Shown one piece after another: positions 11,790-40,954 of a stretch of DNA of 64,000 bases (positions are counted from its first letter, which is position 1; every line of letters begins with the position of its first letter). Origin of the DNA: an uncultured Solibacteraceae bacterium (GTDB taxonomy: Bacteria; Acidobacteriota; Terriglobia; 20CM-2-55-15); the NCBI GenBank assembly GCA_964584785.1, contig CAZPBY010000012.1, positions 56,590 through 120,589 of the forward strand. Reading direction: 5' to 3'. The position numbers and the translations under genes were made by a program. The notes beneath the pieces were generated by a model. It saw nothing but the letters and a program-made list of their open reading frames with translations. It did not search any database and was not told the DNA's origin.

Positions 11790-11800
11790 ATCGCCGGACC

Positions 11801-13149: not shown

Positions 13150-13206
13150 ATGTGGAACACGGGAAGGCGGCCGACCGTATTCCGTGACACTCCGGAGGTC
13201 GTCAAG

Positions 13207-15651: not shown

Positions 15652-15672
15652 GCGTTGTTCTAAGAGTTTGTC

Positions 15673-19968: not shown

Positions 19969-20805
19969 GATTGTTAGTGTAGTTCCGCGTTGAATCCGCC
20001 CGCATGGGGCACGAGATGACTGAAACCGTGATCCTGCGGGCGATCCAGCCGATCTTCCAACTCACTTACGCACTTAGCCAACAAACTTTGTAGACACATG
20101 TTAGGTGCGAGTTTTCTCGCGGATTCGTTTTGTTACGCATCCAGAAAGCATGTTCCCACCGACCTTCGAACACTGGCGTTCGACACCAGCACGCCGCCGG
20201 CGAATGTATTTTCTTGGCGGAAAGTCTCCACTGGGCCATTGCACAGCCGGATCGGGCCGCCAAAACCGCTTCGACTACGTTGATTTTAGAGGGCGTGGGC
20301 ATCCACTTCGGATTGCCACTTTGTCCGTCAGGATTGGGTTGAACAACAGCCGCAAACGACGATGGTAAGACCAAAAAAGTTGAGGACTTTCCGAAGATGG
20401 CGGACTGATTGCTTTACTAGGGCCGTTCGTTGCTCGCACAAGGACGTAAGAACGTGAGAACCAAGTATCTCAAAGGATTTTCAAGGTCGTCAGAAACTCG
20501 AGACCGATGCCGGATAGAGCGTAACACCGTTCGATGCCTATGTTCGGCCTCACGACACCATGACGTTTTGAAACCGGCTTTCTTGCGGTCATTTAGCGTC
20601 ACGACAATGTCAGAAATTTTGAGTAATTTTGGCGATGCCCACTCTTTAACGGTTTCTGCAAGGTTATCGCACCTTATCAGTTCATAAAGAGACGCCGCTG
20701 AGCGGCGCTCGGAGCGGTTTTAGTACACAACCTGATGCAGACAGTAGTTGGAGTCAACACTCCACGTTAACGGGAGAGCACTGCCCACGGATGGAGATCA
20801 TGTTC

Positions 20806-23800
20806 ATGAGTAACAGATTTGCAAAAAACTTAGGCCGATCATTTTCGAGACTCCTCGTCTTCGTCGCGCTCGGTGCATCTGTCCTTATCGCAGCACCGCA
20901 AAAACCACAAATCACAGACATCAGTCCGTCCAGCGGCCAGATTGGATCGACAGTAAGAATCAACGGTTCCAGTTTTTCAGCAACGCCAAGCCTGAACAGA
21001 ATCCTGTTCACCGCGGCGGGTGGGGGCTCCGTTACAGCTCCCGTGATCTCAGCGAGTTCGAATAGCCTCACAGTCACAGTTCCCTCCGGTGCAATATCCG
21101 GTAAGGTATGGGTACAGTCCAATTTCAAATCGAACGGTGTCCTCTTCACGGTCACGACTACTACGAATCAGCCGCCGACAGTCAATGCAGGGCCCGATCT
21201 TAGTGGAACTATGACTTCCGGTCTGTCACTTACTGGCGCCGCGTCGGACGACGGTATTCCTTCAGGCGCGCTTTACGTGTCGTGGTCGCAAGTAAGTGGT
21301 CCGGGTACAACTACCTTCGCTCCCGTGGATTCCCTGGGAACGACAGCTACATTCTCCGCAGCGGGAACTTATGTTTTGCGGCTGACCGCCACTGACGGCG
21401 CGCTCACCTCCACCGACGACATGACGGCCACGATTGTTTCGAATGGTACGCCGCCGGTGAACCAGGCTCCTGTCGTCAATGCGGGTTCCAACCAGACGGT
21501 CACGTTGCCTGCGGGCACCACAGTTTCCGGCACAGCGACAGACGATGGGTTGCCGAACAACAGCCTTTCCGTTGCATGGAGTCAGGTCAGCGGACCTGGA
21601 ACGGCAGTATTTGGTACTGCCGGTTCGCTTACGAGCACTGTCACTTTTCCAACAGCAGGTTCTTATGTTTTGAAGCTGTACGCAAGCGACTCGCTGCTAT
21701 CGAACTCAAGTCAGATGACGGTGACGGTTCTTAGCGCCCCTGCAGCGAACCAAAAGCCTACCGTGAATGCGGGATCGAATCAGTCGGTAACAATGCCGTC
21801 GGGAGTCATGCTTTCGGGCACGGCGACGGACGATGGTTTGCCGAACGGTACTCTCACGGTCGGATGGAGTAAAGTAAGCGGCCCGGGAACCGTCAGCCTT
21901 GGCACTCCAACCGCACTTACAAGCTCGGCCACGTTCTCCGCTGCGGGTTCGTACGTCATGCGTCTGACCGCAAACGACTCGCAACTCTCCAACACCAGTG
22001 ACACGACGGTGACTGTGAGTAGCGCACCGGCGACGAACCAGGCCCCCAACGTGAATGCGGGATCCGGACAGACCGTCACGCTGCCTTCCGGAGTGAGTCT
22101 TTCCGGTACGGCCACCGATGATGGTTTGCCGAACAACACTCTGACGGTGGCGTGGTCCAAAGTGAGCGGTCCCGGTACCGTCACCTTCAGCGCTCCGAGC
22201 GCAGTTACAGGCTCCGCGACGTTCTCTGCGGCGGGCACGTATGTTCTGCGACTGACTGGGAACGACTCCGCACTCTCCTCCACAAGTGATGTGACCATGA
22301 ACGTTTTGAGCGCGCCGTCGGGCAGCGTTTCGAGCCAGGGCACCACACCGGGCGGCGTGAACGTCATGTCCACCTTCCAGGCGATCAGTGTCCGGGCAGC
22401 TTTCTCAGGTGATGACAACTCGAACAATTCCGCCGTCGTTCAGTACCGAAAGGCTGGAACAACCGCATGGATGCCGGCTTATGCCCCGCTCATCGATCGG
22501 CGGGCGTCGCTCGGTGGAGCTACGAATCCTTATGTGAATCAGGCCCGCGTCAGCATCGTCGGCTTGACCGCAAGCACTCAGTACGAAGTTCAGGTTCTAT
22601 GGAGCGATTCAGATGGAGTTGCCGCTCAACCCGGTATCGCAACAATCTCGACCCTGTCCTACACGCCTCCAACGGGTGGAAGCACTATCACCGTCACGAA
22701 CGACTCATCTCTCGCGTCGGCGTTGAACAGCGTCTCCCCCGGCCAGACGATTCACCTGAACCCGGGTACTTATTCACCGTTCTCCATCACACGGTCGGGC
22801 ACACCTTCCGCCTGGATCACAATTGAAGGTGACGCCGCCGGCGGAACAACCATCGGCGGCTCCGGCGTCAGCCAGAACGTTCGTATCGCAGCAAGCTACG
22901 TGATCGTCCAACGGCTGAAGCTGAGCGATTCGGATTGGCATGGTATCTACCTCGAGACTGTCAATCACGTCTTCGTACAGGACAACACTGTTCAGAATGC
23001 TGGAGCCAAGTGCGCCACGGATCTCAGTGGACACTATGGCGACGGTGGTATCACGATTAGCAACGCCAGCGATAACATCTACATTCTGCGCAACAACGTG
23101 AACTCCACTTCATTGAATGGATGCACGGCTACCCCGATTTGGGATAGTCCGGGCGCCGGCATTCAGTGGTACAACATCAACACGCTGATCGTGCAAGGCA
23201 ACACCGTCACCGGTGGATTCCGAGACGCGATCACGGCCGACAACTCCCAGATCGTGGGTGAAAACATCGATATCGTCGGGAACACCCTCAGCGGTTACAA
23301 GGACGACGGTACGGAGTCCAAGGGTACCAACATCAACGTCCGCATGTGGTCGAACAAGATTCTTGTGGACAATGGCGACACTTGCTTCGCGGGTAACACC
23401 AACACCACTACGAACGTTTACGGACCTCTGTACATCTTCAGGAACAGCTGCCGCGTGACTACATCCAACCCCTCGGGCACGACGGTATACAAACTCGGCG
23501 GCGCGCCCACGTTCCTGTTCCATAACTCGGTGGATGCCTCAACGGCGGGAACTCGTTGGGACGGCTTCGTCGGTGTAACGAACAACGTCGTGGCCTACAA
23601 CAACGCGCTCAAGACCGGCGGCTCGGCGATCGATTACGGCGCCACAGGCTCCGTGTTTGACTACAACCTGCACCTCATCACCTCCGGCTCTTCATTCGCG
23701 TATCTGTGGAACTCGACGTCGTATGACACATTGGCGACATTCAAATCGGGAACCGGACAGGAAATCCATGGCAAGCAAATGGAACCTAAGTTTCTGGATA

Positions 23801-23937
23801 CGAACCTCAGTATCGACAGTACCAGCCCGGCTTTTGATTCCGGCATGATCCTCCCCAACTTCAATGACCTGAATTCGGCGTGGCCTTATTCCGGAGCCGC
23901 GCCGGATATCGGAGTGTGTGAATATTGGCCCAAGTAA
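20806..23937 (+). CDS. Large secreted surface protein built as IPT/TIG domain + 5 tandem PKD/Ig-like domains + Fn3-like domain + C-terminal right-handed parallel beta-helix domain (putative glycan lyase or glycanase).
   Basis: Signal peptide MSNRFAKNLGRSFSRLLVFVALGASVLIAAPQ. Start moved to 20806 because GGAG sits 9 nt upstream; the ORF track starts at 20791. Five ~95-aa repeats of the form VNAG..Q.VTLP....LSGTATDDGLP...L.V.WS.VSGPG.V.F......ATFSAAG.YV.RLT. Beta-helix repeats such as NTVTGGFRDAIT..N..IVGN.. The protein ends in AWPYSGAAPDIGVCEY. Confidence 0.8.
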   Translation: MSNRFAKNLGRSFSRLLVFVALGASVLIAAPQKPQITDISPSSGQIGSTVRINGSSFSATPSLNRILFTAAGGGSVTAPVISASSNSLTVTVPSGAISGKVWVQSNFKSNGVLFTVTTTTNQPPTVNAGPDLSGTMTSGLSLTGAASDDGIPSGALYVSWSQVSGPGTTTFAPVDSLGTTATFSAAGTYVLRLTATDGALTSTDDMTATIVSNGTPPVNQAPVVNAGSNQTVTLPAGTTVSGTATDDGLPNNSLSVAWSQVSGPGTAVFGTAGSLTSTVTFPTAGSYVLKLYASDSLLSNSSQMTVTVLSAPAANQKPTVNAGSNQSVTMPSGVMLSGTATDDGLPNGTLTVGWSKVSGPGTVSLGTPTALTSSATFSAAGSYVMRLTANDSQLSNTSDTTVTVSSAPATNQAPNVNAGSGQTVTLPSGVSLSGTATDDGLPNNTLTVAWSKVSGPGTVTFSAPSAVTGSATFSAAGTYVLRLTGNDSALSSTSDVTMNVLSAPSGSVSSQGTTPGGVNVMSTFQAISVRAAFSGDDNSNNSAVVQYRKAGTTAWMPAYAPLIDRRASLGGATNPYVNQARVSIVGLTASTQYEVQVLWSDSDGVAAQPGIATISTLSYTPPTGGSTITVTNDSSLASALNSVSPGQTIHLNPGTYSPFSITRSGTPSAWITIEGDAAGGTTIGGSGVSQNVRIAASYVIVQRLKLSDSDWHGIYLETVNHVFVQDNTVQNAGAKCATDLSGHYGDGGITISNASDNIYILRNNVNSTSLNGCTATPIWDSPGAGIQWYNINTLIVQGNTVTGGFRDAITADNSQIVGENIDIVGNTLSGYKDDGTESKGTNINVRMWSNKILVDNGDTCFAGNTNTTTNVYGPLYIFRNSCRVTTSNPSGTTVYKLGGAPTFLFHNSVDASTAGTRWDGFVGVTNNVVAYNNALKTGGSAIDYGATGSVFDYNLHLITSGSSFAYLWNSTSYDTLATFKSGTGQEIHGKQMEPKFLDTNLSIDSTSPAFDSGMILPNFNDLNSAWPYSGAAPDIGVCEYWPK

Positions 23938-24130: not shown

Positions 24131-25843
24131 ATGACGATGTTTTACGTGATTTTAGCTCTTCGGATTCTTTATTCCTTATCCATGTTGTACAGCAGTATGG
24201 TTGGACTTCAGACAGGCACAGTCCAATCGAACGACACGGCGCCGGGCAATCTCATACTACTCTCCACATTTCGTTCGATCAGCGTGAAGGCACCATTCAG
24301 CGGTGATACCAACGGAAATAATTCCGCCGAAATTCAATTCCGCCCAGTGGGAAGTACGGCGTGGCTGAAGGCCTACACGCCTTTCATCGACCGCCGTCAA
24401 AAACTGGATGGAGTCCAGAATCCATACTTCGGCCAGGCCAGAGTCAGTATTGTGGGGTTAACCGAGAATACGAAATACGAGGTTCAAGTAATCTGGACGG
24501 ATACGGATGGAGTGACGTCTCAGCCTTCCGTCGCCAGCGTTTCGACTCTCTCGTACGAAAAGCCGACAGGAGGCAGCACGATAACAGTGCGCGACGATGC
24601 AACCTTGAGTGCGGCACTGAGAAGCGTGCAACCCGGCCAGACAATTCATATGAATCCCGGATCGTATCGCCCGTTTGCCATCAGGCGCTCCGGAAGTGAG
24701 GGAGCGTGGATTGTATTGGAAGGTGAAACTGGAGGGGGAACCGTTGTCACCGGGGCGGGCGAGAAACAGAACGTGCTGGTGAGCGCGAACTATGTAGTCA
24801 TTCGCAACCTTAGACTAAGCGCATCGGATTCTCATGGGATGTTTCTCTCTCCGAAGGCTCATCATATCTTCGCGCAGGACAATTCCTTTGAGAACATTTC
24901 CACAACATGCGGCGCGAATCCGAAGGGACACTATGACGATGGTGGAATCACGATCGGCGACGGTGCCGGTGACATCGTCATCTTACGAAACAACATCAAT
25001 TCGAGCGCGTTGAGCGCCTCCGCCTGTACTTTAAAGCCCAACTACGACAGCCCCGGCGCGGGCATTCAGTGGTACAACATCACGACACTTGTCGTGCAGG
25101 ACAATACCGTGACCGGAGGCTTTCGCGACGCGATCACAGTAGACAACTCCGGCGATCTGGCTGAAAACGTCGATGTGGTTGGGAACAGTGTGGCGGGTTA
25201 CAAGGACGACGGGCTGGAATCAAAGGGCGGGAACGTGAATGTACGGATCTGGGGCAATCACGTCACTGCAGATCAGGCTAACACGTGCCTGGCGGCAAAC
25301 ACGAATACGACTTCGAACCGGTACGGCCCGATTTACATCTTCAGGAACGACTGTCTGGCGACAGCAAGGAACTCCGAGGGGACGACGGTCTTCAAGCTTG
25401 GCGGTTCGCCGATGTACTTATTTCACAACTCGGTCGACGCCTCTCGCGCTACACCACGCTGGGACGGCTTGATTTCACCAGACGGCTTCACCGTAGCGAT
25501 GAACAACATCGTTAAACTCGGAGGCTCGGCCATCGACTACGGCACTCGTGGAGCCGTCCTCGATTACAACCTATACTTCATCAACTCCGATGCGTCGTTC
25601 GCTTATAAGTGGGACGGTGCAGCGACATACAACACCCTCGCGGAATTCAAATCCAGGGTTGGACAAGAACAACACGGGAAGAACCAGGAGCCGCGGTTTG
25701 CCGACACCCAGCTTCACATCAACGCGACAAGCCCCGCCTTTGATACCGGCACGGTCATCATGAACTTTAACGATCCACAGTCCGCGTGGCCGTATTCAGG
25801 GGCCGCACCGGATATCGGAGCCTTCGAATTTCGTCGAAACTAG
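24131..25843 (+). CDS. Truncated paralog of the C-terminal half of gene 20806-23937 (Fn3-like + right-handed beta-helix).
   Basis: It aligns colinearly with residues ~515-1048 of the upstream protein (e.g. STFRSISVKAPFSGDTNGNNSAEIQFRPVGSTAW versus STFQAISVRAAFSGDDNSNNSAVVQYRKAGTTAW). It ends in AWPYSGAAPDIGAFEF. The N-terminus is hydrophobic but not a canonical signal peptide, so the start is uncertain. Confidence 0.7.
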   Translation: MTMFYVILALRILYSLSMLYSSMVGLQTGTVQSNDTAPGNLILLSTFRSISVKAPFSGDTNGNNSAEIQFRPVGSTAWLKAYTPFIDRRQKLDGVQNPYFGQARVSIVGLTENTKYEVQVIWTDTDGVTSQPSVASVSTLSYEKPTGGSTITVRDDATLSAALRSVQPGQTIHMNPGSYRPFAIRRSGSEGAWIVLEGETGGGTVVTGAGEKQNVLVSANYVVIRNLRLSASDSHGMFLSPKAHHIFAQDNSFENISTTCGANPKGHYDDGGITIGDGAGDIVILRNNINSSALSASACTLKPNYDSPGAGIQWYNITTLVVQDNTVTGGFRDAITVDNSGDLAENVDVVGNSVAGYKDDGLESKGGNVNVRIWGNHVTADQANTCLAANTNTTSNRYGPIYIFRNDCLATARNSEGTTVFKLGGSPMYLFHNSVDASRATPRWDGLISPDGFTVAMNNIVKLGGSAIDYGTRGAVLDYNLYFINSDASFAYKWDGAATYNTLAEFKSRVGQEQHGKNQEPRFADTQLHINATSPAFDTGTVIMNFNDPQSAWPYSGAAPDIGAFEFRRN

Positions 25844-25856: not shown

Positions 25857-27740
25857 CTACATCCATTCCTGTTGCCAGGCTTGAAACATCAGAATTCCCC
25901 ACAGTTCGTGAGCCCGGTTCTTGGTTCCGTTCAAGTGATCCTGCCACGCCTGCCGGACAGGTACAGGATCGAAGATTCCTTTACGTCGCATTTCTGCCGG
26001 ATCGAGAAGATCTTCGACCCAGGTGCGCAGCGGACCGCGAAGCCACTGGCGTAAGGGGAAACCAAAACCCATTTTAGGACGCTCAAACAACTCGGTGGGC
26101 ACGTAACGATTCAAGATCAAGCGAAGGAGCCGCTTTCCTTTTCCCTGATTGATCTTGTACTCGAGCGGCAACTGCCAGGCATACTCGATGATGCGATAGT
26201 CGAGCAGTGGTTCTCGCGCTTCGAGACTGACTGCCATACTCGCCCGATCCAGTTTTGTGAGGATATCCTCAGGCAGGTATGTGACGAGATCAAGATACAT
26301 CATTCGCTCGGTATCGTTCATCTTGTCGGCCCATAGGCTGGCGTCCGTAAACGGAGTCAGGTGTTCCGACGACTGCGGAACAAGTTCGGCCGGCCGCATC
26401 CACTGGGACACATGGTAGCGATGCATTCCTTCCGGTGTTTTTACCTGCAACAAGTCCTGAACGTTTCGAAATCTCCGGTTTCCGAGCAACTCCATGCCTC
26501 GGACGCCCATTTCCACCATGCTGCGAACCGGCGTGGGCACGGCCTGGAGCAACTTCCATCGCTTCGCTCCCAGGATGTATTCCTCGTATCCGCCAAACAA
26601 CTCGTCGCCGCCATCTCCCGAGAGGCTGACGGTAACGGACTCACGTGCCAGCTTGGAGACAAGGAACGTCGGTATCTCCGAAGGATCCGCGAACGGTTCA
26701 TCGTAGATCGCCGACATCAACGGGATGGTCTGAAGGGCAGCTTCCGAGGAGACGAACAACTCCGTATGGTCTGTACCCAAATGCTGCGAAACTCGTTTCG
26801 CGTAACTGGCTTCATTATGCGTGGCCTCTTCAAAACCAATCGTGAATGTCTTCACGGTTGATGTCGTTTGCGCCTGCATCATCGATACGACCAACGATGA
26901 ATCGATTCCTCCGGAAAGAAACGCCCCGACCGGGACGTCTGCCAGCATTCTCAACCGGACGGAATCGCGCAACAGTACTTCCAACTCATCGGCCGCCTCG
27001 TGTATGTCCGGCGCCGGGCGACCGTCCAGCTGACCTTCCACAACGTCTCTCGCCGACCAATAGGGCGTAGACGACGCCCGGTCCTGCGGTGACGACATCG
27101 TCACATAGTGGCCCGGAAGTAACTTGCGCACGTTCTCGTAAATACAGTGCGGCGCCGGAATGTATCCGAGGCGAAGGTACAGCGCGAGACTGCTGCGATC
27201 CAATCTGGCAGCAAATCCCGAGTATGCGCGCAGAGCCTTGAGTTCAGAACCGAATAGCAAAGCATTGCCTGTCCAACCATAGAACAGCGGCTTCACTCCC
27301 ATCCGGTCTCGAGCAAGCGTGAGCTTTCGCTCTTTCCTATCCCAGAGAGCAAAAGCGAACATTCCATTACATCGGCGCAAGGTATCCCGCACACCCCATT
27401 CGGCGCATGCATCGAGAAGAACCTCAGTATCGGAATTGCTGACGAACTTACGGCCACGGCCTTCCAGTTCCCGACGGATATCCTGGAAGTTATAAATCTC
27501 GCCGTTGTACGCAATGACGTAGCGTCCACAATGAGACACCATCGGCATATGCCCCGCTGGAGAGAGATCAAGAATCGCCAGCCGGCGGCTGGCAAGTGCT
27601 ATTCCTGCGGCGGGATCGACCCATAACCCGTCGTCATCGGGTCCACGATGCAGCAGGCTCCTGCTCATCGCGGCACCCATCGAGATCATGGCTTCTTCAG
27701 CATCACCGGGTACTTTCCAGAAGCCGGTAAGTCCGCACAT
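25857..27740 (-). CDS. asnB: Asparagine synthase (glutamine-hydrolysing) family amidotransferase, AsnB-like, of the polysaccharide-locus type.
   Basis: N-terminal MCGLTGF class-II glutamine amidotransferase nucleophile. SGGIDSS PP-loop. 627 aa. Confidence 0.85.
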   Translation of the reverse strand: MCGLTGFWKVPGDAEEAMISMGAAMSRSLLHRGPDDDGLWVDPAAGIALASRRLAILDLSPAGHMPMVSHCGRYVIAYNGEIYNFQDIRRELEGRGRKFVSNSDTEVLLDACAEWGVRDTLRRCNGMFAFALWDRKERKLTLARDRMGVKPLFYGWTGNALLFGSELKALRAYSGFAARLDRSSLALYLRLGYIPAPHCIYENVRKLLPGHYVTMSSPQDRASSTPYWSARDVVEGQLDGRPAPDIHEAADELEVLLRDSVRLRMLADVPVGAFLSGGIDSSLVVSMMQAQTTSTVKTFTIGFEEATHNEASYAKRVSQHLGTDHTELFVSSEAALQTIPLMSAIYDEPFADPSEIPTFLVSKLARESVTVSLSGDGGDELFGGYEEYILGAKRWKLLQAVPTPVRSMVEMGVRGMELLGNRRFRNVQDLLQVKTPEGMHRYHVSQWMRPAELVPQSSEHLTPFTDASLWADKMNDTERMMYLDLVTYLPEDILTKLDRASMAVSLEAREPLLDYRIIEYAWQLPLEYKINQGKGKRLLRLILNRYVPTELFERPKMGFGFPLRQWLRGPLRTWVEDLLDPAEMRRKGIFDPVPVRQAWQDHLNGTKNRAHELWGILMFQAWQQEWM

Positions 27741-27741
27741 A

Positions 27742-28935
27742 CTAAACCTCTCTGGCTGAAAATACTTCCTGATGTTCCAGGAGTTCGGCCGGGCAAGGGA
27801 TACCGAAGAAGTTGTAGATTTCCGTGATCACGGACATGACTTCTGCATCCTGCATTTCGTAATACATGGGCAACCGAAGTAACCTCTCGCTCAACTGCTC
27901 GGTTACAGGCAACATGCCCTGGCGGTATCCCATCGCTGTGCCCATGGGTGACGTGTGAAGTGGAACGTAATGAAAGACCGCGAGTATGCTGCGGCTCTTG
28001 AGGTGATCGATCAACTTAGTCCGTTCATTCAACGACCTCAGCAGAACATAGAACATGTGGTAGTTTGAATCGCAGTCTGCCGGTACCGTCGGAAGTGTAA
28101 GGAGACCTTCTCTAGCCAGAGGTTCGAGGCAGAACTTATAGAGTTCGTAGATTCGCGCCCGGCGCCTGGTAATGAGATCCATATTCTCGAGCTGCGCATA
28201 CAGGAACGCCGCGACGATATCCGAAGGCAGCAGAGACGACCCGATGTCGACCCAGGTGTATTTGTCGACCTGGCCGCGGAAGAAACGGCTTCGATTGGTT
28301 CCTTTTTCACGAACGATTTCGGCCCTTTCCACGAACTCACGGTCGTTCAGTACGATCGCGCCGCCTTCACCGCATATAAAATTCTTGGTTTCATGAAAGC
28401 TGTACGCGCCGATGTTACCGAGGGTCCCCAGGAAGCGTCCTTTGTATTTCGAATTGACTCCCTGCGCGGCGTCTTCAATAACAAGCACTCCGCGCTTCCT
28501 GGCGATTGCCTGAATCGTGTCCATATCGCACGAAATCCCAGCGTAGTGCATCGGGACGATGACGCGCGTCCGTTCCGTGATGACGCGGTCGATGTGGGTC
28601 TCGTCGATATTCATCGTGTCGGGCCGGCAGTCGACAAACACCAGTCGAGCGCCTCGCAACAGAAACGCATTTGCCGTTGATGAGAAGGTGTACGAAGGCA
28701 TGATCACTTCGTCGCCGGCTTGCACATTCGAAAGAATGGCTGCGAGTTCGAGCGCTGCCGTAGCCGACGTCGTCAGCAGGATTTGCTGCGCACCAAAGGA
28801 TTCCTGCAACAACTGTTGGGCCTTCTTTGTATATGGACCGTCGCCGCTTATCTGTCCATGAAGCACCGATTGGGCGATGTAGTACAGCTCCTTGCCGACA
28901 ATAAATGGCTTGTTGAATGGAATGCGATAATTCAT
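27742..28935 (-). CDS. DegT/DnrJ/EryC1/StrS-family PLP-dependent sugar aminotransferase (WecE/ArnB-like; makes an NDP-4-amino-4,6-dideoxyhexose).
   Basis: N-terminus MNYRIPFNKPFIVGKELYYIAQSVLHGQISGDGPYTKKAQQLL closely parallels the WecE/ArnB N-terminus. Lies adjacent to rmlA and the Und-P GT2 gene. Confidence 0.8.
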   Translation of the reverse strand: MNYRIPFNKPFIVGKELYYIAQSVLHGQISGDGPYTKKAQQLLQESFGAQQILLTTSATAALELAAILSNVQAGDEVIMPSYTFSSTANAFLLRGARLVFVDCRPDTMNIDETHIDRVITERTRVIVPMHYAGISCDMDTIQAIARKRGVLVIEDAAQGVNSKYKGRFLGTLGNIGAYSFHETKNFICGEGGAIVLNDREFVERAEIVREKGTNRSRFFRGQVDKYTWVDIGSSLLPSDIVAAFLYAQLENMDLITRRRARIYELYKFCLEPLAREGLLTLPTVPADCDSNYHMFYVLLRSLNERTKLIDHLKSRSILAVFHYVPLHTSPMGTAMGYRQGMLPVTEQLSERLLRLPMYYEMQDAEVMSVITEIYNFFGIPCPAELLEHQEVFSAREV

Positions 28936-28967
28936 AGCAGTGTCCTTCTTTTACGAATTTCGAAGTG

Positions 28968-29975
28968 TTACTCGTTCTCTTTAACTATGGAGTCCCGGAC
29001 TGCGTAAGGCGGCCGATCCATGGTTCGAAAGTGCATGCGTGCAAGGTACTCACCGATAATCCCGAGAGCGAAAAGCTGTGCTCCTGAGAAAATGGCGATG
29101 ACGGAAGCGAGAAAAGGAAATCCAGCGACTGTGCTGCCATACTTCAAGTACTTTGCCAGGACGTACATCAAGACTCCAACACCGAAAAAGGTGAAGAAAA
29201 ATCCGACGATACTTGCAACCTGAAGTGGAAACGTGCTGAAACCGGTCATCATGTTCATCGCATGACGAATCAGTTTACCCAGGGTGTAGCCGGACCTGCC
29301 GATAGTGCGCTGATCGTGACGCACAGTAACAGCCGAGAATCTCGTGGTACCCCACGTCAACAAAACGTCAATGGAAACGTAGGGACCTCTATAATTGGCA
29401 AACGCTTCGCGCAACTGAGTTCGGAATGCACGATAGGTACTCACGCGGCGAGCTGTTTCCGCTCCCATCGCGCTCTGAAGCGCTATTTTCGTCAAGGTTG
29501 AGGCCAGGTCTCTCAGTAACCCGTGCCGTTCCTGGTCTGGCCGCGCATAAACGACGTCAAACCCTTCGTTCAATTTCGAAAGGATCTTAGGTATCTCTTC
29601 GGGTGGATTCTGAAGGTCGTCGTCCAGTGTAATCGTCACATCGAATTGGGCGGCTCGGATTCCGCAAAGCAACGCGTTGTGTTGACCGAAATTCCGCATC
29701 AATCGAATTCCGTGCACCCAATCGTGTTCTTGGGCAAGGCGGGTGACGATGTCCCAACTGCGATCCTTGCTGCAATCATCAACCAGAATGACTTCGAAGT
29801 TTGAAGTGCAAGACATCAAAACTGGTTCGAGGCGTTCCGCCAGCAAGGACAGGCTGTCCTGACTGTTGTAGACTGGAACAACGATCGAAACGCCGTGTTT
29901 CAGAGCGTCCTTGTCGACGCCGGTCCACAGCGTGGTTTCCGAAATTCTATCGTTGATCGATATCATCGTATTCAT
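28968..29975 (-). CDS. GT2-family polyprenyl-phosphate glycosyltransferase (ArnC/GtrB-like) with a C-terminal transmembrane anchor.
   Basis: [13 protein letters not shown]...[14 protein letters not shown] DxD-type N-terminus. Two or three C-terminal TM helices. Start placed at 29975 (MNTMISIND), which overlaps the rmlA stop as ATGA, with GGAGG upstream. Confidence 0.75.
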
Positions 29976-30874
29976 CGCAGGCTGTCCTCCAAAACGATAT
30001 CCTGCAGATATTTCCCATAAGGGTTCTTCAAAGCTTTCGCCAAATCCAACATTTGCTGCGCCGTGATGAACCCCTGGCGATAGGCCACTTCTTCGATGCA
30101 CGCGATCTTGAAACCTTGACGCGCCTGAATCGTCTCGACGAAAGCCGATGCCTGCATCAGGGATTCGTGTGTACCGGTATCGAGCCAGGCAAAACCGCGC
30201 CCGAACCGTTCGACCGAGAGTTGCCCGCGGCGCATGTACTCGCGATTGACATCCGTGATTTCCAGTTCGCCGCGAGCCGAAGGTTTTATGCTTCCGGCAA
30301 TGTCCACAACCTGATTGTCATAGAAGTACAAGCCGGTCACCGCAAAGTGCGACTTAGGTTGTGCCGGCTTCTCCTCAATCGAAATCGGCCGCCACTCCGA
30401 ATCAAATTCCACAACGCCATAGTGCTGGGGCTCACTCACGGCATAGGCAAAGTTTGTGGCTCCTGTCGAACGAACTGTAGCTGCGACAAGTTTTTCCTGA
30501 AAACCCTGGCCATAGAAAATATTGTCGCCGAGTATCAGTGCGACGTGGTCGCGCCCAATAAACTCGCGCCCTACCAAAAACGCTTGCGCCAGACCTCCAG
30601 GATGCGGCTGCACAGCATAAGTAATGCGGATGCCGATCTTGCTGCCATCGCCCAGTACCCGTTCGAAGCTGCCGATGTCGTGAGGGGTTGAAATCACCAG
30701 GACATTTCGGATCCCTGCCAACATCAGTGTCGACAGCGGATAGTAGATCATCGGCTTGTCGTAGATCGGCAGCAGCTGCTTGCTGATGGCATGCGTCACC
30801 GGATACAACCTCGTCCCGAGCCCTCCGGCAAGAATGATTCCCTTTGTGAACGCGGGCGTCTGGTCAGCCATCAA
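29972..30874 (-). CDS. rmlA: Glucose-1-phosphate thymidylyltransferase (RmlA/RfbA).
   Basis: [46 protein letters not shown] is the canonical RmlA N-terminus. Confidence 0.9.
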
Positions 30875-32235
30875 GCCAACCTCCTCGAAGCAACGAGCGG
30901 CCGCCGTACCCAGTCACCAACAACCAGCGCCGCTTGCGCGGCGAACAGCAACATCGCAAACTCCACGGGATAGTGGTAACGGATATTCCACCCTCCGATG
31001 TAGCTGTAAACCGCGGTGTCCGCAATGATCAACAAAAGAGCAACGCAGTCGATCCAGTATTCTCTAATGAATGACATTCCGTGCCGCACCTGAATCAGCC
31101 GGGACACCACGACAGGAATACTCAGGATCAGGAGGAGATAGTACGGCACTCTTCGCCCCAGCATGTACGACAATGAATAATCATCTCGATACCTGGGAGG
31201 TTCCCACCAAAAATGCGAAAGGTTCATCAGCACCAGACGTCCCGAATCGAGCGGGGAGTCACCGATGGCGGACTTTATTGCTTCCGCCAGCATTTCACCT
31301 TCCTGGAGTTCATTCAGCGTACGGCCGCGTTTCTCCAGGTCAATCAGTGTTTCATCGGACAAGGGCATGGGATAGCCGGCCTCGGATCGAGTCTTCAGTA
31401 GTTCGTGGCCGGTAGCGGCTCTCATGACGATCCGGTCAAACAAGATGTAGTTCCGAATGAACCAAGGAGCAATCACCACGAAGACCACGGCTCCAGCGGT
31501 GACGACGCAAACGAGCTTGTCGGCATACCGGTCGCGAAAAACGAACGCCGCTACGCAGAGAGCCAGAGTGGTGAACAACAACGTCCCTGGGTTGGTCATA
31601 CCGAGAACGCCGGCAGTTGCACCGCAGCAGGCAAACCTCCGCACCGTCGGATTCTTCTGAAGGCCCGCTACAAGGTAGAGGAACACCGACAACAAAAACA
31701 GAAGGACGATAGTCGACTCCGGTGACGTAGCACACTGATATATAAAAGGTGGATAAATGGCGAAGCCCAGGGCAAACGCCAGACCGATTAGGGTCGAATG
31801 GGAACGAAACGTCAGGAACAACGTGACGGCCGTAAGCCCCGCTATCACGCTATGCACTATGAAGAGGGCCAGAAAATTTCCGCTGCCGAAAACATAAAAC
31901 ACAGCGGCAATCAGGAACGGAAACACCGGCTGCTTCAGCGTTGTCGGCCGGGCCCCGCCGATCACGGGATCTTGTATCTTTTTCTCGATATCCTGAACAA
32001 GGTTCCCATAAACCATTCGGGTGCGCCATTCCGTGTCCAGCGAGTAACCGTTTCCACGTACCAGATTCCTGCCGATCGATACATCTTCCCAATAGAGAAC
32101 CTTGTCGTTGCCCTTGAAAGTGGCCGCGATCGCCAGAAGGCGTATGCCTACTGCCAGACAAAACAGCAGTATGACTATCGTTCTGGTGCTGGGAAGGAAC
32201 TCCGTCGCGTTCCTTGCGTTCATCATCCTTCTCAT
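30871..32235 (-). CDS. Polytopic membrane glycosyltransferase of the GT-C fold (ArnT/PMT-like, GT39/GT83-type). Assignment is tentative.
   Basis: About 11 predicted TM segments. The first periplasmic loop ([18 protein letters not shown]) resembles the acidic-loop region of ArnT/PMT_2 enzymes. Sits in the same block as the ArnB- and ArnC-like genes. Confidence 0.5.
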
Positions 32236-32257
32236 TCTGAAAAACCTCTAAGATCTG

Positions 32258-33706
32258 CTATGCGGGCGCCAGGGCGGAAGACTCTTCGATTCGTGCTGCC
32301 TGCGACTTGACGTCAAGGCTGCTCACGACGCCGGTCAACCAAAATCCGATCACGTCGAACATTTGGTCCCACCGAAGATCCGACGTTAAACCCAGTATGA
32401 AAAAACACAAGACGGCTACAAGGCCGACGAGGGCAAACCTTCTTTCGTAAGCCCACTGCTCCCCTTTCAAGTGCCAGTAAGCGCGGAGGCACACTAGAAA
32501 TGAAAATAGAATGATCCCTCCATAACTGAGGAAACCTAGTATTCCCAGTTCTGCCAGGATGCCGAGAAGTGAACTGTGGTTGCCGTCTTCCAATTCGCGG
32601 ACTTGAGAAAAGCCAGTTGGAAAGTACTTGTCCCACTCATGAAGAAACCGGCCGTATCCGACTCCGAATAGCCAGTGGTCCTTGAACATGTTGTAGGTAG
32701 TTTCATAGTTGGCATAACGGTATTCGACCGTTTGCTGGCGCCGGGAGAAGAGCGTATCTTCGCCCGACGAAAACTTTGAGCCGGCACCCGAAAAGAACCC
32801 AACGACCAGCAAGCATGCGAGCACCATGGAGTTTCTGCGCATTGGAGTCTTCAAGAGCAAAGTCGTCGCCATGATGGCCGCGAATCCAAGCCAAATCGCT
32901 CTGGTTTCTGTGAAGTAAACGGCGAGTACGACGAAGCCATAGAGCATGAGAGTAATCATGCGCTTGATTCCGGTCCACTCTGCCATCATGCAAGCAAGAG
33001 CCGCGAAGGTCACCAGTAAGATGCCGCCATCGGTCACCGAACTCAGGAACGGCCCCCTGGCTCTGCCAAAGTGTATGCCTATACCGTCTCGCATGATGTA
33101 CGACGGGATAACAAGCTTCGGGAAGAAGTGCTCGCAAATATTCGTAATTGCCAGGTAGATGCAAATACCTGAAAGCCACTTCAGTATTCGGTCTATGGAC
33201 TCCCTGCTGTGATCCAGACGCCGCGCGATCGCATACGCCACTCCCGGCCAGACTGGAAAGTTGAAGATTGTCGTCAGCAATCGAAACGCCTGGTTCTCAG
33301 CGTCACCGCCTGATGTGAGGTAAGAGAGTGTGACGACCACGAAGTAGGTCACCATCAGCAATCCGACCATCGCGGCGGCAAATCCGGCTTTGGGTTTCTC
33401 CGAACCTTTGGGTGCGGCCGGACGCCCGAGGTACGTCACCAGAATCGCGCCGAAAGCTATCCGATCCGGGAAGAAACTAAGTCCGATATTCCAATTGAAT
33501 ACCGGCATGTATTTGTATTGAAAACACTGCAGGAACATCCAGACGCAGAACAACCTGATGAGTTTTTCATCCGGCGTCAACGCCTTGGCCCGGCCGATGA
33601 TCCTCGCGACTGTTGGTTTCGGTTCCCGGACCGGCTTTCCAACACGTGCTGCCACCGGTGACTTCAAGCCCGGTCTCAGTTCGTTTTTTATTTTCCCAAC
33701 GAGCAT
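32258..33706 (-). CDS. O-antigen ligase / Wzy_C-family polytopic membrane protein (polysaccharide polymerase or ligase).
   Basis: 482 aa, at least 10 TM helices, and a periplasmic loop with a Wzy_C-like region (FLHEWDKYFPTGFSQVRELEDGNHSSLLGILAELGILGF). Confidence 0.65.
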   Translation of the reverse strand: MLVGKIKNELRPGLKSPVAARVGKPVREPKPTVARIIGRAKALTPDEKLIRLFCVWMFLQCFQYKYMPVFNWNIGLSFFPDRIAFGAILVTYLGRPAAPKGSEKPKAGFAAAMVGLLMVTYFVVVTLSYLTSGGDAENQAFRLLTTIFNFPVWPGVAYAIARRLDHSRESIDRILKWLSGICIYLAITNICEHFFPKLVIPSYIMRDGIGIHFGRARGPFLSSVTDGGILLVTFAALACMMAEWTGIKRMITLMLYGFVVLAVYFTETRAIWLGFAAIMATTLLLKTPMRRNSMVLACLLVVGFFSGAGSKFSSGEDTLFSRRQQTVEYRYANYETTYNMFKDHWLFGVGYGRFLHEWDKYFPTGFSQVRELEDGNHSSLLGILAELGILGFLSYGGIILFSFLVCLRAYWHLKGEQWAYERRFALVGLVAVLCFFILGLTSDLRWDQMFDVIGFWLTGVVSSLDVKSQAARIEESSALAPA

Positions 33707-33983
33707 TCAGGCGCCGCCGCAAACATGGAAGCGTTGCGGGTCCTCGCGTTCATGGCAAGAGTCCGGTTTTGTTAGCGTCAGACGGATGGGAAGCAACTGC
33801 GCTTGAGATGCGCTACCGCCATTTCAGTCCCGAATAGACTCCGGTAGACAGCAGCGTTCAATGAAGAATTCCAGATCGCCCTTCGGCAAAAGGATGAAGG
33901 ACGACGGAGTGCATGCTATGGACTGCATGGGTTTATGTCAAGCGGCTTTTGGCTGAATTCAAGCGACAAAGCGACAAAACGGC

Positions 33984-34012
33984 TTGACTTTTTTTCCTCT
34001 GATTGGCATGAT
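33984..34012 (+). promoter_or_regulatory. Sigma70-like promoter candidate upstream of giant gene 34087: TTGACT-N17-CATGAT. It is preceded by the tandem direct repeat agcgacaa x2 (33961-33978).
   Basis: Direct reading. The -35 hexamer is at 33984-33989 and the -10-like hexamer at 34007-34012, about 75 bp before the ATG. Confidence 0.3.
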
Positions 34013-34086
34013 GCCGCCGCCGCAGGGTCAGAACGACTCGCCATCCGAGCGGTTAAATCGAAATCTGAAGGTTCAAAGCAAACTGC

Positions 34087-37000
34087 ATGGTCGGTCGGCG
34101 TTCATGTCGAATTCGATTACGTACACTCATTAGCCTTAGCCTTCTAGCGTCATCGCGCCAACAAGCTCAAACACCCACCGGCATTTCGGCCGAAGCAAGC
34201 CGGACGGTTCACGAGTCGGCGGCGATCCTTACGTACACCAACCCAGCCGGTATCGTCGTCTCGCGTGCCGGAGTGAACCCAACGGAGCCGCTCAAATCGG
34301 GCCTGATATTTGTCGATCAGACCGGCCCGACGACGGGCATTACGCTTGCCAATCCATCGGACCAATCAGCATCGCCCACGCTCATTCTGCGCGACGAATC
34401 GGGCCGGGAGACCGCACGAAGAACGCTCGACCTGGCGGCGAAACAAGATAGTGACGTTACCATCAGCGAACTGTTTCCTGGATTGCCTGACGGCTTCCGC
34501 GGCACCCTCGCCTTTGAGTCCGATCAGCCGCTCGCCGGAAATGGTTTCCGCGAAAACATTAACGCATACGGCGAGTCCATCCTTTCGAGTGTTCCTGCCG
34601 TTGATTCCGCATCACCTTTATCCGCAGAACCGTTGGTTCTCCCTCACATTGCTGCCGCGGGCGGGACAACCGACGTTGTGCTGGTCAACACCGCCGACCA
34701 GAGGGTCCGCGGAACCATTCGGTTGATCGGGCCGTCCGGCAAGCCATTGGCGATGCGGCTGAGTGACCACATCGGATCGCAGTTCGGCTACGAGATCGAA
34801 GCCGGGGGCGTTTACCGCGGTCGATTCGAGAGCCTGTCCGCCGGGGCAGCCGGTTATGCGATCGTCACTCCCAACGACGGAGACTCTACTCCGACGGGAA
34901 TGCTGATTTTCCAGGCCACATCCGGCAGAGGGCTGGTCTCCGAAGCGATTGTTGCCGTCAACGAAAGACCCACAACGTCCGCCAGAGTTTTTGTCGATAA
35001 CGCAACTGCAAGGACCGGGTTCGCAATCGCCAACCCCAATCTCGTTTCCACAACGGTATCTTTTGCGTTGCTTGATGCGAACGGCACTGCCGTTGGGAAA
35101 GTCACAACCGAGCTCGCTCCTCGTGGATACAGCGCGGTGTTTGCTAATGAACTCTTCCCGCAGCTGGTGGACGGCTTTGAAGGATTGCTCGACATCACAG
35201 CTCCCCTGCCTGTAGTACCGATCAGCTTGATGGTCGCCTTGAACGAGAGGAACGATCCAATTCTAACTTCGCTTGATATTGTGGACCTGGATCATCCACT
35301 TGAGTCGCAGTCTCTGGTTTTCCCGCAGACTTCGTTCGGGTTGCAGGCAGCTGCGCGCCTGATTGCGATCGAAGCGAGCAGGGATTCGTCAGCCGGCGTC
35401 ATTTTGACGCTATCGCAACTGGACAGCACCCAACTTCATAGCCTGTCCTTGAGCGGCAGTGCCAATCAGTCCGGATCTCAATCGGGAAAGAAACCGGTGG
35501 CGTTCGCGCCCGGCAACGCTCCGCGACTCTCTGTTGCGGCCACGTGTGATCCGCTCCTTCAAAATCCCATCATGTCCGAATACCAATTGACCGGAAATCC
35601 ACAGATCGAATGGGATGTGACCGGAGCCGGCGATTCCAGTATCCAGGGATTCGCATCGGAGATCAGTGTCAATAAGGGTGAGACAGTCTTCTTTAAAGTC
35701 AGCACTCCCTCGACAAGTTACCGTCTCGATATATATCGTCTGGGCTACTATGCCGGCGCTGGTGCCAGAAAAATAACCACTGTCAATCCGTCCGTCGTTC
35801 TACCGCAAAATCAGCCCGCTTGTCTGACGGATTCCACGACGGGCTTGATCGATTGCGGCAACTGGGCTGTGTCCGCTTCCTGGGCCGTTCCTTTGACGGC
35901 CGTTTCCGGCGTCCACATTGCAAAGCTTGTGCGACAGGATGGATCGACCGTATCAAGCCACATTGTGTTTATTGTCCGGGACGACGCAAGCACGTCCGAT
36001 CTTCTTTTCCAGACTTCGGACACCACCTGGCAGGCCTACAACAGTTACGGCGGCAACAGTTTCTACACCGGCTCTCCGGCAAGCCGCGCCTTCAAGATTA
36101 GTTATAACCGGCCATTCAATACCAGGGTAACGAACACCAACAGCTGGTTGTTTGGCGCGGAATATCCGATGATTCGCTTCCTCGAGGCGAACGGGTATAA
36201 CGTCACCTACTTCACGGACATCGATACGGATCGCCGGGCCTCGCTCCTGCTTCAGCACAAGGTTTTCCTGTCGGTGGGTCACGATGAGTATTGGTCCGCT
36301 GCCCAGCGCACAAACGTCGAAAACGCCCGCGCGGCCGCCATCAATCTGGCGTTTTTCAGCGGCAACGCGGTGTTTTGGAAGACACGGTGGGAAAACAGCA
36401 TCGACGGATCGAATTCCCCTTACAAGACGCTCGTGTGTTACAAGGAGACCCACGCCAACGCGAAAATCGATCCCACTCCGGTTTGGACGGGAACCTGGCG
36501 CGATCCCAGATTCAGTCCTCCAGCGGATGGCGGCCGACCATCAAACAGTCTGAAAGGAACACTCTTCTCGGTCAACGGTCCGCGAAGTGACGCCATTGCC
36601 GTGCCGTCGACTTATGCTCCCTTGAGGTTCTGGCGAAACACCACGGTCGCTTCACTTTCATCCGGTCAGACAGCGACGTTCCCCGTAGGTACGCTGGGTT
36701 ATGAATGGGACGAGGCACCGGATGGACCTAACGCGCCTCCGGGTCTGGTCACGATGTCGTCCACCACTCTGGATGTTTCGCCCAGCTACCTTTTGAACTA
36801 CGGCTCGACGTTCGGTTCCGGCATAGCGACGCACCAGCTGACTCTATACAAACACAGCAGCGGCGCTCTGGTTTTCAGCGCGGGAACCGTACAGTGGGCA
36901 TGGGGGTTAGACAATATTCATGACGGCTCTGCCCCGGCTCCTGACGTGCGCATGCAACAAGCGACGATCAACTTGTTCGCCGATATGCGCGCGCAGCCGC

Positions 37001-40288: not shown

Positions 40289-40954
40289 TTAAACGAGGTG
40301 TTTTGTAATCCAGTCTTCGGCGCCGTTGCTTGATGCCAGCTTGAGAACCGGATTCACGTCATAGAGCCGTTCGATTCGCTCGACCGTGAGATCGCTGGTA
40401 TCGATCACCATTGCGCAAGCCGTCGCTTTCAACTCGCGCGACTGACCTACTGAACCGGGATTGAGCAGGTAGGGCTTCTTGTCGGTCCGGCAAACGACGC
40501 GATGCGTTTGCCCGAAGAGGATCACGTCGTAGTCGAATTCACTCAGCCGGTCGAGAGCCGCAGAACCGGGATACATGTAATCCTCAATCGTACGCCACGG
40601 ACTGCCATGAACCATGAGGAAAGTCCGACCGTCGAGTCGTCCGGACCAGGTCAGAGGGAGTTCGGATAGCCATCGGCGGTTCTCGTCTGAAATGCTCTGT
40701 CGCGCAAACTCGACACCGAATCGGACACTCGCCGGAACATCGTCCGGACAGCCGTAGAGCAGAAAGTAGTCATGATTGCCGAGGATAGACCGCACGCCCA
40801 TGGCACGAACGTAGTCCATCACCTCATTTACCTGGCAATAGTATCCGGTGAGGTCACCGGCGCAAAGAATCCGATCGGCCGATTCGAGGACATCGCTCAA
40901 CGCCTTCAATGCTTCGAAATTTGCATGAAGATCACTGATCAGGGCGATGCGCAT
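40289..40954 (-). CDS. Metallophosphoesterase (calcineurin-like phosphoesterase, YfcE-like).
   Basis: MRIALISDLHANFEALKAL...ILCAGDLTGY...LGNHDYF carries the DxH...GD...GNHD/E motifs. Confidence 0.85.
   Translation of the reverse strand: MRIALISDLHANFEALKALSDVLESADRILCAGDLTGYYCQVNEVMDYVRAMGVRSILGNHDYFLLYGCPDDVPASVRFGVEFARQSISDENRRWLSELPLTWSGRLDGRTFLMVHGSPWRTIEDYMYPGSAALDRLSEFDYDVILFGQTHRVVCRTDKKPYLLNPGSVGQSRELKATACAMVIDTSDLTVERIERLYDVNPVLKLASSNGAEDWITKHLV

Follow-up and report, generated by a model that had tools for sequence, protein, structure and literature searches.

A predicted Arn/Gtr-like module for extracytoplasmic transfer of a 4-amino-4,6-dideoxyhexose in a Solibacteraceae exopolysaccharide locus

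Three-component periplasmic glycosylation is a general means by which bacteria vary their surface after polymer synthesis. In the Arn pathway of Escherichia coli and Salmonella (PmrHFIJKLM), the proteins ArnB, ArnC, ArnA, ArnD, ArnT and ArnE/F act to place 4-amino-4-deoxy-L-arabinose (L-Ara4N) on lipid A. Gtr systems—GtrA/GtrB/GtrC, CsbB/YfhO, GacI/GacL and the Citrobacter GT136 system—combine a family 2 glycosyltransferase (GT2) working on polyprenyl phosphate, a small flippase and a GT-C transferase acting on a finished glycan (PMC11127046, for the general scheme and the Citrobacter system). Their known donors are glucose, galactose, N-acetylglucosamine (GlcNAc), mannose, galacturonic acid, galactosamine, Ara4N and pentofuranoses, from precursors activated with uridine diphosphate (UDP), guanosine diphosphate (GDP) or phosphoribosyl pyrophosphate (PRPP). 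The closest genetic precedent for a 6-deoxy amino sugar linked to deoxythymidine diphosphate (dTDP) in such a route is wxc region 3 of Xanthomonas campestris, which we compare by description and whose route was reportedly called Gtr-like when first described. This region encodes an aminotransferase (wxcK), a glycosyltransferase (wxcL), an acetyltransferase/isomerase (wxcM) and the membrane proteins wxcN and wxcO, of which wxcN is small (PMC12573098); wxcK and wxcN mutants lose the branch of Fuc3NAc, an N-acetylated 3-amino sugar, on an independently made O-antigen main chain (PMC4878081). In the pathway for enterobacterial common antigen (ECA; RffH/RffG/WecE/WecD/WecF), WecF adds the 4-amino counterpart Fuc4NAc in the cytoplasm, to lipid II linked to undecaprenyl pyrophosphate. 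Here we analyze an operon within a 64,000-nucleotide stretch of an uncultured Solibacteraceae bacterium (contig CAZPBY010000012.1, positions 56,590 to 120,589; hereafter, the window). We argue that its four core genes probably constitute an Arn/Gtr-like three-component module that decorates an extracytoplasmic envelope molecule with 4-amino-4,6-dideoxy-D-galactose (Fuc4N), the sugar predicted for the module, or with an N-acyl derivative of it.

The operon consists of six minus-strand open reading frames (ORFs) running from 33706 to 25857, listed here in the order of transcription:

32258..33706, minus strand: Wzy_C-like polytopic protein of 482 amino acids (aa), the first gene of the operon (Pfam Wzy_C, E 2.3e-18)
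30871..32235, minus strand: compact GT-C-fold membrane protein of 454 aa (PMT_2, 28.4 bits, and predicted fold)
29972..30871, minus strand: RmlA, glucose-1-phosphate thymidylyltransferase of 299 aa from the ATG at 30871 (TIGR01207)
28968..29975, minus strand: ArnC/GtrB-type GT2 of 335 aa with two C-terminal transmembrane helices (ArnC/GtrB structure matches)
27742..28935, minus strand: WecE orthologue of 397 aa, a predicted pyridoxal phosphate-dependent dTDP-4-keto-6-deoxyglucose 4-aminotransferase (NF008687)
25857..27740, minus strand: AsnB-like glutamine-dependent amidotransferase of 627 aa, starting Met-Cys and encoded last in the operon (Asn_synthase, E 5.6e-111; GATase_6/7)

Tight spacing argues for a single operon: 22 nucleotides (nt) separate the Wzy_C-like gene from the GT-C gene, the GT-C and rmlA genes overlap by 1 nt and the rmlA and GT2 genes by 4 nt, and gaps of 32 nt and 1 nt precede the wecE and asnB genes, respectively. 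With these overlaps and their Shine-Dalgarno (SD) sites, the GT-C, RmlA and GT2 genes are translationally coupled. The GT2 starts at ATG 29975, which is preceded by GGAGGA at a distance of 8 nt and overlaps the stop codon of rmlA (ATGA); a longer, GTG-initiated ORF (28968-30101) was dropped in its favor. For RmlA, a TTG start at 30874 was replaced by the ATG at 30871, most likely the true start, with its TGATG overlap and upstream GGAGG. Profile matches are strong (E 1e-28 to 1e-178) and not due to chance, PMT_2 alone being marginal and backed by the fold. An earlier reading of this DNA, made from its sequence only, had described four co-directional genes with these coordinates and identities, flanked by AsnB and an O-antigen-ligase-like protein, and the profile matches agree with it on all six.

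Two of the core genes specify the nucleotide sugar. RmlA scores 477 bits against TIGR01207 (cutoff 360.65) and is 60% identical to RffH, the E. coli K-12 genes serving as reference for this and the following identities to RffH, WecE, ArnB and ArnC. The aminotransferase belongs to DegT_DnrJ_EryC1 (Pfam, E 2e-88) and exceeds the cutoffs of both NF008687, the NCBIfam model for dTDP-4-amino-4,6-dideoxygalactose transaminase (591 bits vs 375), and TIGR02379 (552 bits vs 434.85). Both proteins thus pass equivalog cutoffs for dTDP-Fuc4N(Ac) biosynthesis. The aminotransferase had been called WecE/ArnB-like, of which the WecE half holds (57% identity over 374 aa); with 32% identity to ArnB and 216.8 bits against the ArnB model, below its cutoff of 631, the enzyme is not specifically ArnB-like.

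The third core gene encodes what is predicted to be a polyprenyl-phosphate glycosyltransferase, albeit not ArnC itself. Among PDB structures, ArnC (9bhc) matches residues 28-333 with an E of 4.9e-48, followed by GtrB (5ekp, 6.6e-36) and DPMS (5mlz, 6.5e-18), whereas heparosan and chondroitin synthases match at residues 23-129 only (E 4e-7 to 1e-4) and the PgaC and NodC models give at most 47 bits. Since the match to ArnC and GtrB is full-length and includes the transmembrane helices (248-277 and 281-310), while processive synthases align with roughly the first 100 residues, the protein groups with polyprenyl-phosphate transferases. The C-terminal membrane anchor and ArnC/GtrB kinship proposed from the sequence therefore stand. 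Identity to ArnC is 33% end to end, with a 13-residue stretch and the GEY motif aligning; the score against the NCBIfam ArnC model NF007986 (193.6 bits) lies under the cutoff of 529. The clade around this GT2, with more than 8,000 hits, is very large, and its high conservation shows in over 100 clusters that share 64-86% identity; a search of a plasmid collection returned only canonical ArnC, at 33-35%.

The fourth core protein is a GT-C transferase by fold. Its Pfam PMT_2 match (PF13231, residues 103-259) is marginal at 28.4 bits against a cutoff of 26.1 (E 2.3e-6); the same domain is annotated on most of its relatives. The AlphaFold2 model (predicted local distance difference test score 86.7; predicted template-modeling score 0.88) retrieved STT3, PglB and AglB from the PDB by Foldseek at E 4e-6 to 1e-4 and ArnT at 1.4e-3, and then AftA, AftB, Pmt1, ALG and Emb proteins; for STT3, PglB, AglB, ArnT, AftB and Pmt1 the probability was 1.0. 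All of the top 33 matches have the GT-C fold, nearly all with a probability of at least 0.9, and three of them are PIG-U, the GT-C-like subunit of the glycosylphosphatidylinositol transamidase; the best match has an E of 3.9e-6 and a template-modeling score of about 0.5. Six residues (E50, D51, P257, W258, R261 and N262) are invariant across the family alignment. The acidic pair was assessed in this alignment, the PMT_2 model covering residues 103-259 only: E50 and D51 are invariant in all 12 family members, and position 50 is acidic in 16 of 16 aligned sequences covering the site, the most distant included. In the model, the first transmembrane helix spans residues 17-39 and E50-D51 mark the beginning of the helix that follows, in the loop after the transmembrane segment. 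The GT-C enzymes PglB, ArnT and the protein O-mannosyltransferases (PMTs) have their catalytic acid at this position. E50 and D51, in the first external loop of the model, may be catalytic or metal-binding residues.

The GT-C fold and acidic loop expected from the sequence are thus both present, and membership in PMT_2 holds, if marginally. Kinship with ArnT, proposed along with it, does not extend to sequence. An ArnT (GT83) assignment was rejected after alignment of the family profile with E. coli ArnT by hhalign gave a probability of 7.6%, and tblastn of ArnT on the window gave E 0.54 at a site other than the GT-C gene. The protein also ends right after its last transmembrane helix, at residue 454, lacking an ArnT-like C-terminal periplasmic domain. 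No NCBIfam model matches it, nor did a PDB sequence search with the family profile return a match. Judged from the model, likeness to ArnT holds at the level of the fold only. An exhaustive profile search retrieved 1084 clusters at 50% identity (E≤1e-30), and among species-representative genomes, a set that does not contain the source genome, there was a single relative at 36% identity. By its sequences, this is a sizeable family of compact GT-C proteins without a curated model.

What ties the four genes together is their recurrence in related loci. We distinguished a close GT-C clade (49-71% identity; seven independent loci including the window) from a distant one (32-38%), and additionally read the surroundings of close GT2 relatives (68-74%). 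Gene orders are as follows, with percentages giving identities:

Close clade, window: Wzy_C, GT-C, RmlA, GT2, WecE, AsnB
Close clade, L016 and L017: GT-C, RmlA (84% and 69% identical)
Close clade, L012: GT-C, RmlA (73-76%), two genes, GT2 (72% to that of the window)
Close clade, L018: RmlB, RmlA, WecE (57%), GT2, methyltransferase, PhyH dioxygenase, GNAT, WbqC, ArnE-like, EamA, GT-C
Close clade, L010: RmlA, WbqC, ArnE-like, EamA, GT-C, WecE (59%), GT2
Close clade, L001: EamA, GT2, acyl-ACP genes, WbqC, WecE (58%), GT-C
Distant clade, L006 and L013: GT-C beside a short GT2 and GtrA
Distant clade, L005: GT-C beside GtrA
Distant clade, L004: GT-C beside DegT, RmlB, RmlA, GT2
GT2 relative, P0169: GT2, GNAT, DegT
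GT2 relative, P0180: RmlA, GT2, GNAT, DegT, with AsnB also in the block
GT2 relative, L014: GT2, WecD-like GNAT (best NCBIfam match NF008212), WecE (56%)
GT2 relative, L015: GT2, ATP-grasp, WecE (52%), among housekeeping genes and with no other glycosyltransferase nearby

RmlA and/or a WecE-type aminotransferase accompanies the GT-C in all seven close-clade loci and directly adjoins it in six; an ArnC/GtrB-type GT2 is present in each of the five loci with enough flank. The Arn-like logic put forward for this operon—from nucleotide-sugar aminotransferase through polyprenyl-phosphate GT2 to GT-C—is borne out by this linkage. Three close-clade loci add ArnE/F-like small membrane proteins, those of L001 and L018 resembling E. 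coli ArnE (E 2e-8 and 4e-7), and flippase genes of the GtrA or ArnE/F type occur in L001, L010, L018, L005, L006 and L013. RmlB is encoded in L018 and L004. By its gene content, L018 reads as what is in effect a complete Arn-style operon around dTDP-Fuc4N. Next to the close GT2 relatives, a DegT aminotransferase occurs in all four contexts read, and in the two with DNA (L014, L015) it was confirmed to be of the WecE type.

The loci of relatives hold further genes of potential relevance. An unannotated polytopic protein of 526 aa with nine transmembrane segments (L014, 8123-9703) and two others in L015 (13490-15358, 622 aa with seven transmembrane segments; 19165-20778, 537 aa, weakly matching PMT_2) flank the respective cassettes of GT2, acyl enzyme and WecE. 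No sequence relation of these proteins to the window GT-C was detectable, and they may be alternative, acceptor-specific transferases. Between WecE and GT-C, the sister loci L001 (1693-6572), L018 (4142-7030) and L010 (771-1472) contain tailoring genes that include WbqC, GNAT, an acyl-CoA ligase with a carrier protein, a luciferase-like oxidoreductase, a PhyH dioxygenase and a methyltransferase, which suggests that in those organisms the amino sugar bears an N-acyl group of an unusual kind.

In the route that we propose, RmlA would form dTDP-glucose, as its strong orthology indicates, and a dTDP-glucose 4,6-dehydratase, presumably encoded outside the window, would convert it to dTDP-4-keto-6-deoxyglucose. 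WecE, given its identity to the characterized E. coli enzyme, would then transaminate C4 to yield dTDP-Fuc4N. From there, the GT2 is predicted by family and linkage to move the sugar from dTDP to undecaprenyl phosphate (Und-P) at the cytoplasmic face, and a flippase—again presumably encoded outside the window, and of the ArnE/F-like or GtrA kind in sister loci—would carry the Und-P-sugar over the membrane. Finally, the GT-C protein, by its fold and linkage, would transfer the sugar to an acceptor at the outer face of the inner membrane.

Within the window, this route is incomplete. As had been noted from the sequence, rmlB is absent: no window ORF of at least 150 aa contains a Pfam Epimerase or GDP_Man_Dehyd domain, tblastn with RffG found nothing at E≤1, and RmlB from a sister locus gave a best E of 0.036. 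Nor did tblastn of the 64-kb window return a match for wecD, arnA, arnD, arnE/F, gtrA or wbqC, for the GNATs of L014 and L018, or for a homologue of WecF, the cytoplasmic Fuc4NAc transferase. Searches of the window for a flippase, for which ArnE and ArnF as well as three GtrA and four EamA-like sister-locus proteins served as queries, reached a best E of 0.11, and small ORFs in the gaps at 19969-20790 and 33707-34086 include no membrane protein.

To place the module, we annotated its surroundings, which identify the window as an XrtA/PEP-CTERM exopolysaccharide (EPS) locus:

59975-63999, minus strand: PrsR/PrsK regulatory pair (TIGR02915, TIGR02916)
50289-59941, minus strand: EPS gene block following PrsR/PrsK
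33913..33941, minus strand: candidate sigma-70-type promoter TTGACA-17-TAGCAT (10 of 12 consensus positions; a consensus match only)

PrsR scores 606 bits against its model (cutoff 502.6), and PrsK, cut by the window end, 296.9 against 300. The EPS block encodes a MurJ-like flippase, two Polysacc_deac_1 proteins, three GT4 glycosyltransferases, a sulfotransferase (54881-55900) and a FemAB-like protein that stays below its equivalog cutoff (137 vs 260). The window contains no exosortase gene; in the syntenic locus L002, Exosortase_EpsH is encoded upstream of PrsK. Among the distant GT-C relatives, one is encoded between PrsK and PrsR, next to an exosortase, and others lie near FemAB-like EPS genes. 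Because of this EPS setting and of the relative between PrsK and PrsR, we consider the glycan made by the surrounding locus to be the most likely acceptor.

The outer genes of the operon probably belong to the EPS locus rather than to the module. The Wzy_C-like protein, with about nine hydrophobic segments, scores 23.7 bits against TIGR03097 (exosortase-A-associated O-glycosylation ligase; cutoff 188), and L016 and L017 have no homologue of it upstream of GT-C. AsnB stays below the cutoff of the XrtA/PEP-CTERM amidotransferase model TIGR03108 (564 bits vs 817), exceeds that of TIGR01536 (484 vs 267) and recurs in only one other related locus, P0180; it probably serves an EPS-locus function such as uronic-acid amidation.

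As regards transcription, the candidate sigma-70 promoter lies ~207 nt upstream of the Wzy_C start, and the upstream intergenic region (33707-34086) contains no sigma-54 promoter as would be expected under PrsR control. A sigma-54-like −24/−12 match, TGGCGCCCGCATAGCA, agrees at 9 of 11 positions and falls within the operon (32256-32271, minus strand), 21 nt upstream of the GT-C start codon, where it spans the Wzy_C stop and the short gap. It is probably due to chance, since the window holds five matches of such quality and the leader would be too short for an SD site.

Two further enzymes of the locus deserve mention. A second sugar aminotransferase, PseC/LegC-like and 56% identical to the DegT protein of L002, is encoded within 58243-59941 (minus strand) and paired with a hexapeptide acyltransferase of the NeuD/PglB/VioB-like type (59441-59941), forming a separate amino-sugar pathway; in principle, this acyltransferase could act on Fuc4N as well. 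At 40959-42095 (minus strand), beside a YfcE-type metallophosphoesterase (40289-40954, minus strand), lies an ATP-grasp protein (PF15632 ATPgrasp_Ter; NF009402, 301 bits) that is 28% identical (E 2e-9) to its L015 counterpart, the ATP-grasp protein whose gene separates those of GT2 and WecE. The window protein might serve to N-aminoacylate the amino sugar.

Several points weigh against a dedicated Fuc4N transfer module. Every step of the mechanism is a prediction from sequence, fold or linkage, and rmlB, a flippase and N-acyl or deacylase enzymes are absent from the 64-kb window. The GT-C assignment carries a marginal PMT_2 score, no detectable sequence kinship to ArnT and no NCBIfam match. 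Beside the GT2 relatives of L014 and L015 stand polytopic proteins that bear no detectable relation to the window GT-C. In an EPS locus, moreover, RmlA and WecE could simply supply cytoplasmic assembly of the repeat unit. A dTDP donor would also be an extrapolation from the characterized enzymes ArnC, GtrB and DPMS, all of which, to our knowledge, use UDP- or GDP-sugars; we know of no biochemical demonstration of dTDP-sugar use in this GT2 class. Full-text searches of the literature that combined dTDP, Fuc4N or viosamine with ArnC, GtrB or GT-C found no such system described.

Of the claims made for the module, the charge of its product is the least secure. The operon had been taken to deliver a cationic amino sugar, and this is not established: in six of the eight related loci with enough flank, GT2 and WecE have an N-acyl enzyme between them or at their side, namely a WecD-like GNAT (L014, P0169, P0180), an ATP-grasp protein (L015) or a GNAT, WbqC and acyl-ACP genes (L018, L001), and ArnC requires an N-formylated donor, accepting no other (10.1101/2025.01.29.634835). 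The module could hence operate as proposed on a neutral sugar, such as Fuc4NAc, that is N-acylated by an acyltransferase encoded elsewhere and stays so, an outcome to which we give a sizeable chance, somewhat short of even. With 69-74% identity between the window GT2 and the GT2s of GNAT-containing blocks, the donor is probably shared, arguing for an acylated donor supplied from elsewhere; the window itself offers its hexapeptide acyltransferase and ATP-grasp protein. On the other hand, the gap between GT2 and WecE measures just 32 nt, which argues for a free amine; no WecD, GNAT or WbqC homologue was found in the 64 kb, the hexapeptide enzyme has another aminotransferase as its partner, and L012 lacks an acyl gene between RmlA and GT2. 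On balance, we put delivery of the sugar as a free amine at roughly an even chance.

A wider reading builds on the free amine. The GT2-WecE cassette with its GT-C partners would represent a widespread Arn-like pathway of soil bacteria, probably hosted by Acidobacteriota and relatives, with a GT2 that uses dTDP-sugars; in the present organism, the N-acyl step would have been lost, leaving a free-amine, cationic Fuc4N on an anionic (uronic-acid-containing, sulfated) exopolysaccharide or on lipid A. In its entirety, this reading is doubtful. If true, it would imply that the surface polymer is zwitterionic or that the organism is intrinsically resistant to cationic peptides.

Lipid A or core would be the acceptor if the GT-C protein were a functional analogue of ArnT that lowers anionic charge, and confers cationic-peptide resistance, without acting on EPS. 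This is possible given the self-contained nature of the sister operons: L018, L010 and L001 (GT-C identity 59-61%) look like Arn-style operons with their own ArnE/F-like genes and are not parts of obvious EPS loci, and orthologues would be expected to share an acceptor. We nevertheless regard it as unlikely for the window, where the GT-C gene follows a Wzy_C gene in an XrtA/PEP-CTERM locus and a PmrA/PhoP-type context is lacking. GT-C is, moreover, unrelated to ArnT by sequence, Foldseek places oligosaccharyltransferases above ArnT, and distant relatives reside between PrsK and PrsR or beside FemAB-like EPS genes.

Alternatively, two pathways might be mixed in one operon. RmlA and WecE would feed a cytoplasmic EPS repeat unit, as in ECA, GT2 and GT-C would form a separate Gtr-like side-chain system for a UDP-sugar (glucose or GlcNAc), and their adjacency would reflect the clustering of EPS genes. 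In favor of this, the EPS locus of the window is large and comprises three GT4 enzymes, a MurJ/Wzx-like flippase, Wzy_C and a second pair of aminotransferase and acyltransferase; such a split would suit the UDP- or GDP-sugars taken by characterized ArnC/GtrB-type enzymes; and L005, L006 and L013 have GT2 and GtrA without dTDP-sugar genes in their sequenced flanks (~1.6-9 kb per side). The block of GT2, acyl enzyme (where present) and WecE is, however, kept in every context examined. In L015, it stands without another glycosyltransferase to use the dTDP-sugar, which makes a mere supply role of RmlA and WecE in cytoplasmic repeat-unit assembly unlikely. Together with the direct adjacency of close GT-C relatives to RmlA or WecE in six of seven loci, the translational coupling of GT-C, RmlA and GT2, and the lack of a WecF homologue in the window, this renders the mixed arrangement quite unlikely.

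Protein O-glycosylation, with GT-C modifying secreted or PEP-CTERM proteins straight from the Und-P-sugar, is very unlikely: PMT_2 is the protein O-mannosyltransferase superfamily, the top fold matches are oligosaccharyltransferases and giant secreted proteins are encoded alongside in an XrtA/PEP-CTERM sorting locus, yet the adjacent giants carry no PEP-CTERM tail that would mark them as acceptor candidates, GT-C has neither the MIR nor the periplasmic peptide-binding domains that PMTs and oligosaccharyltransferases possess, and no acceptor candidate is conserved beside GT-C in its relatives.

Four such very large secreted proteins surround the operon, at 20791-23937 and 24131-25843 (both plus strand), 34087-40266 (plus strand) and 42167-50227 (minus strand). 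One, of 2686 aa, has 22 K319L-like PKD repeats and another, of 2059 aa, combines three DUF4082 domains with DMFA2_C and fn3. Two beta-helix proteins (1048 and 570 aa) share a highly similar C-terminus of ~60 aa (…TSPAFD.G….NFND..SAWPYSGAAPDIG..E…). Further to the left, positions 13-19968 hold metabolism and transport genes unrelated to the module: amidases (2289-4142, 15673-17301), a xanthine-dehydrogenase-type Mo/2Fe-2S enzyme (4233-7096), a MacB/FtsX-type permease (13150-15651), an amidohydrolase, a nucleotide-sugar dehydrogenase (17465-18826) and signal-peptide proteins without a family match (7216-10212, 10458-11789).

The proposed Fuc4N module offers a testable function for two groups of proteins, which they would gain should it be borne out: the family of compact GT-C proteins (~1,000 clusters at 50% identity) and the very common clade of "ArnC-like" GT2s that metagenome annotation mislabels as aminoarabinose transferases. 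A system fed by dTDP-Fuc4N would extend the short donor repertoire of three-component glycosylation to 6-deoxy-amino sugars. If the sugar were delivered as a free amine, it would alter the charge of EPS or lipopolysaccharide (LPS) of the acidobacterial type, a change that bears on soil aggregation, on the binding of metals and on how well cationic antimicrobials are resisted.

Compared with described systems, the module shares with Arn the order of operations, from a 4-aminotransferase acting on a nucleotide 4-keto sugar, through an Und-P GT2 with a transmembrane hairpin, to a periplasmic transferase of the GT-C fold; ArnE/F-like small membrane proteins in sister loci add to the likeness. It differs in that its sugar derives from a dTDP-hexose (RmlA/WecE) instead of a UDP-pentose, in the absence from the window of ArnD and of ArnA, the decarboxylase/formyltransferase, and in a GT-C protein of 454 aa that has neither a periplasmic domain nor sequence kinship to ArnT. 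Its GT2 and aminotransferase fall under the ArnC and ArnB equivalog cutoffs, and its context is an EPS locus, that of Arn the PmrA regulon. With Gtr systems, the module has in common a constant GT2 whose GT-C partner varies across loci, as well as distant GT-C relatives encoded beside GtrA. Its dedicated sugar genes, in contrast, are those for dTDP-Fuc4N, outside the range of known Gtr donors, and the window contains no GtrA or SMR gene. From the wxc route, it is set apart by the sugar, which there is 3-amino and N-acetylated, and by the LPS O-antigen as acceptor. ECA shares clear orthologues of RmlA and WecE (60% and 57%), and relatives of the module keep a WecD-like GNAT beside WecE, whereas WecF, WecD and RffG are missing from the window and an ArnC-type GT2 stands in their place. 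Thus, as judged from its sequences, the module resembles both Arn and Gtr systems and, by the standard of equivalogs, belongs to neither; it would leave the mechanism of such systems unchanged and represent an incremental extension of a known type rather than a new kind of system.

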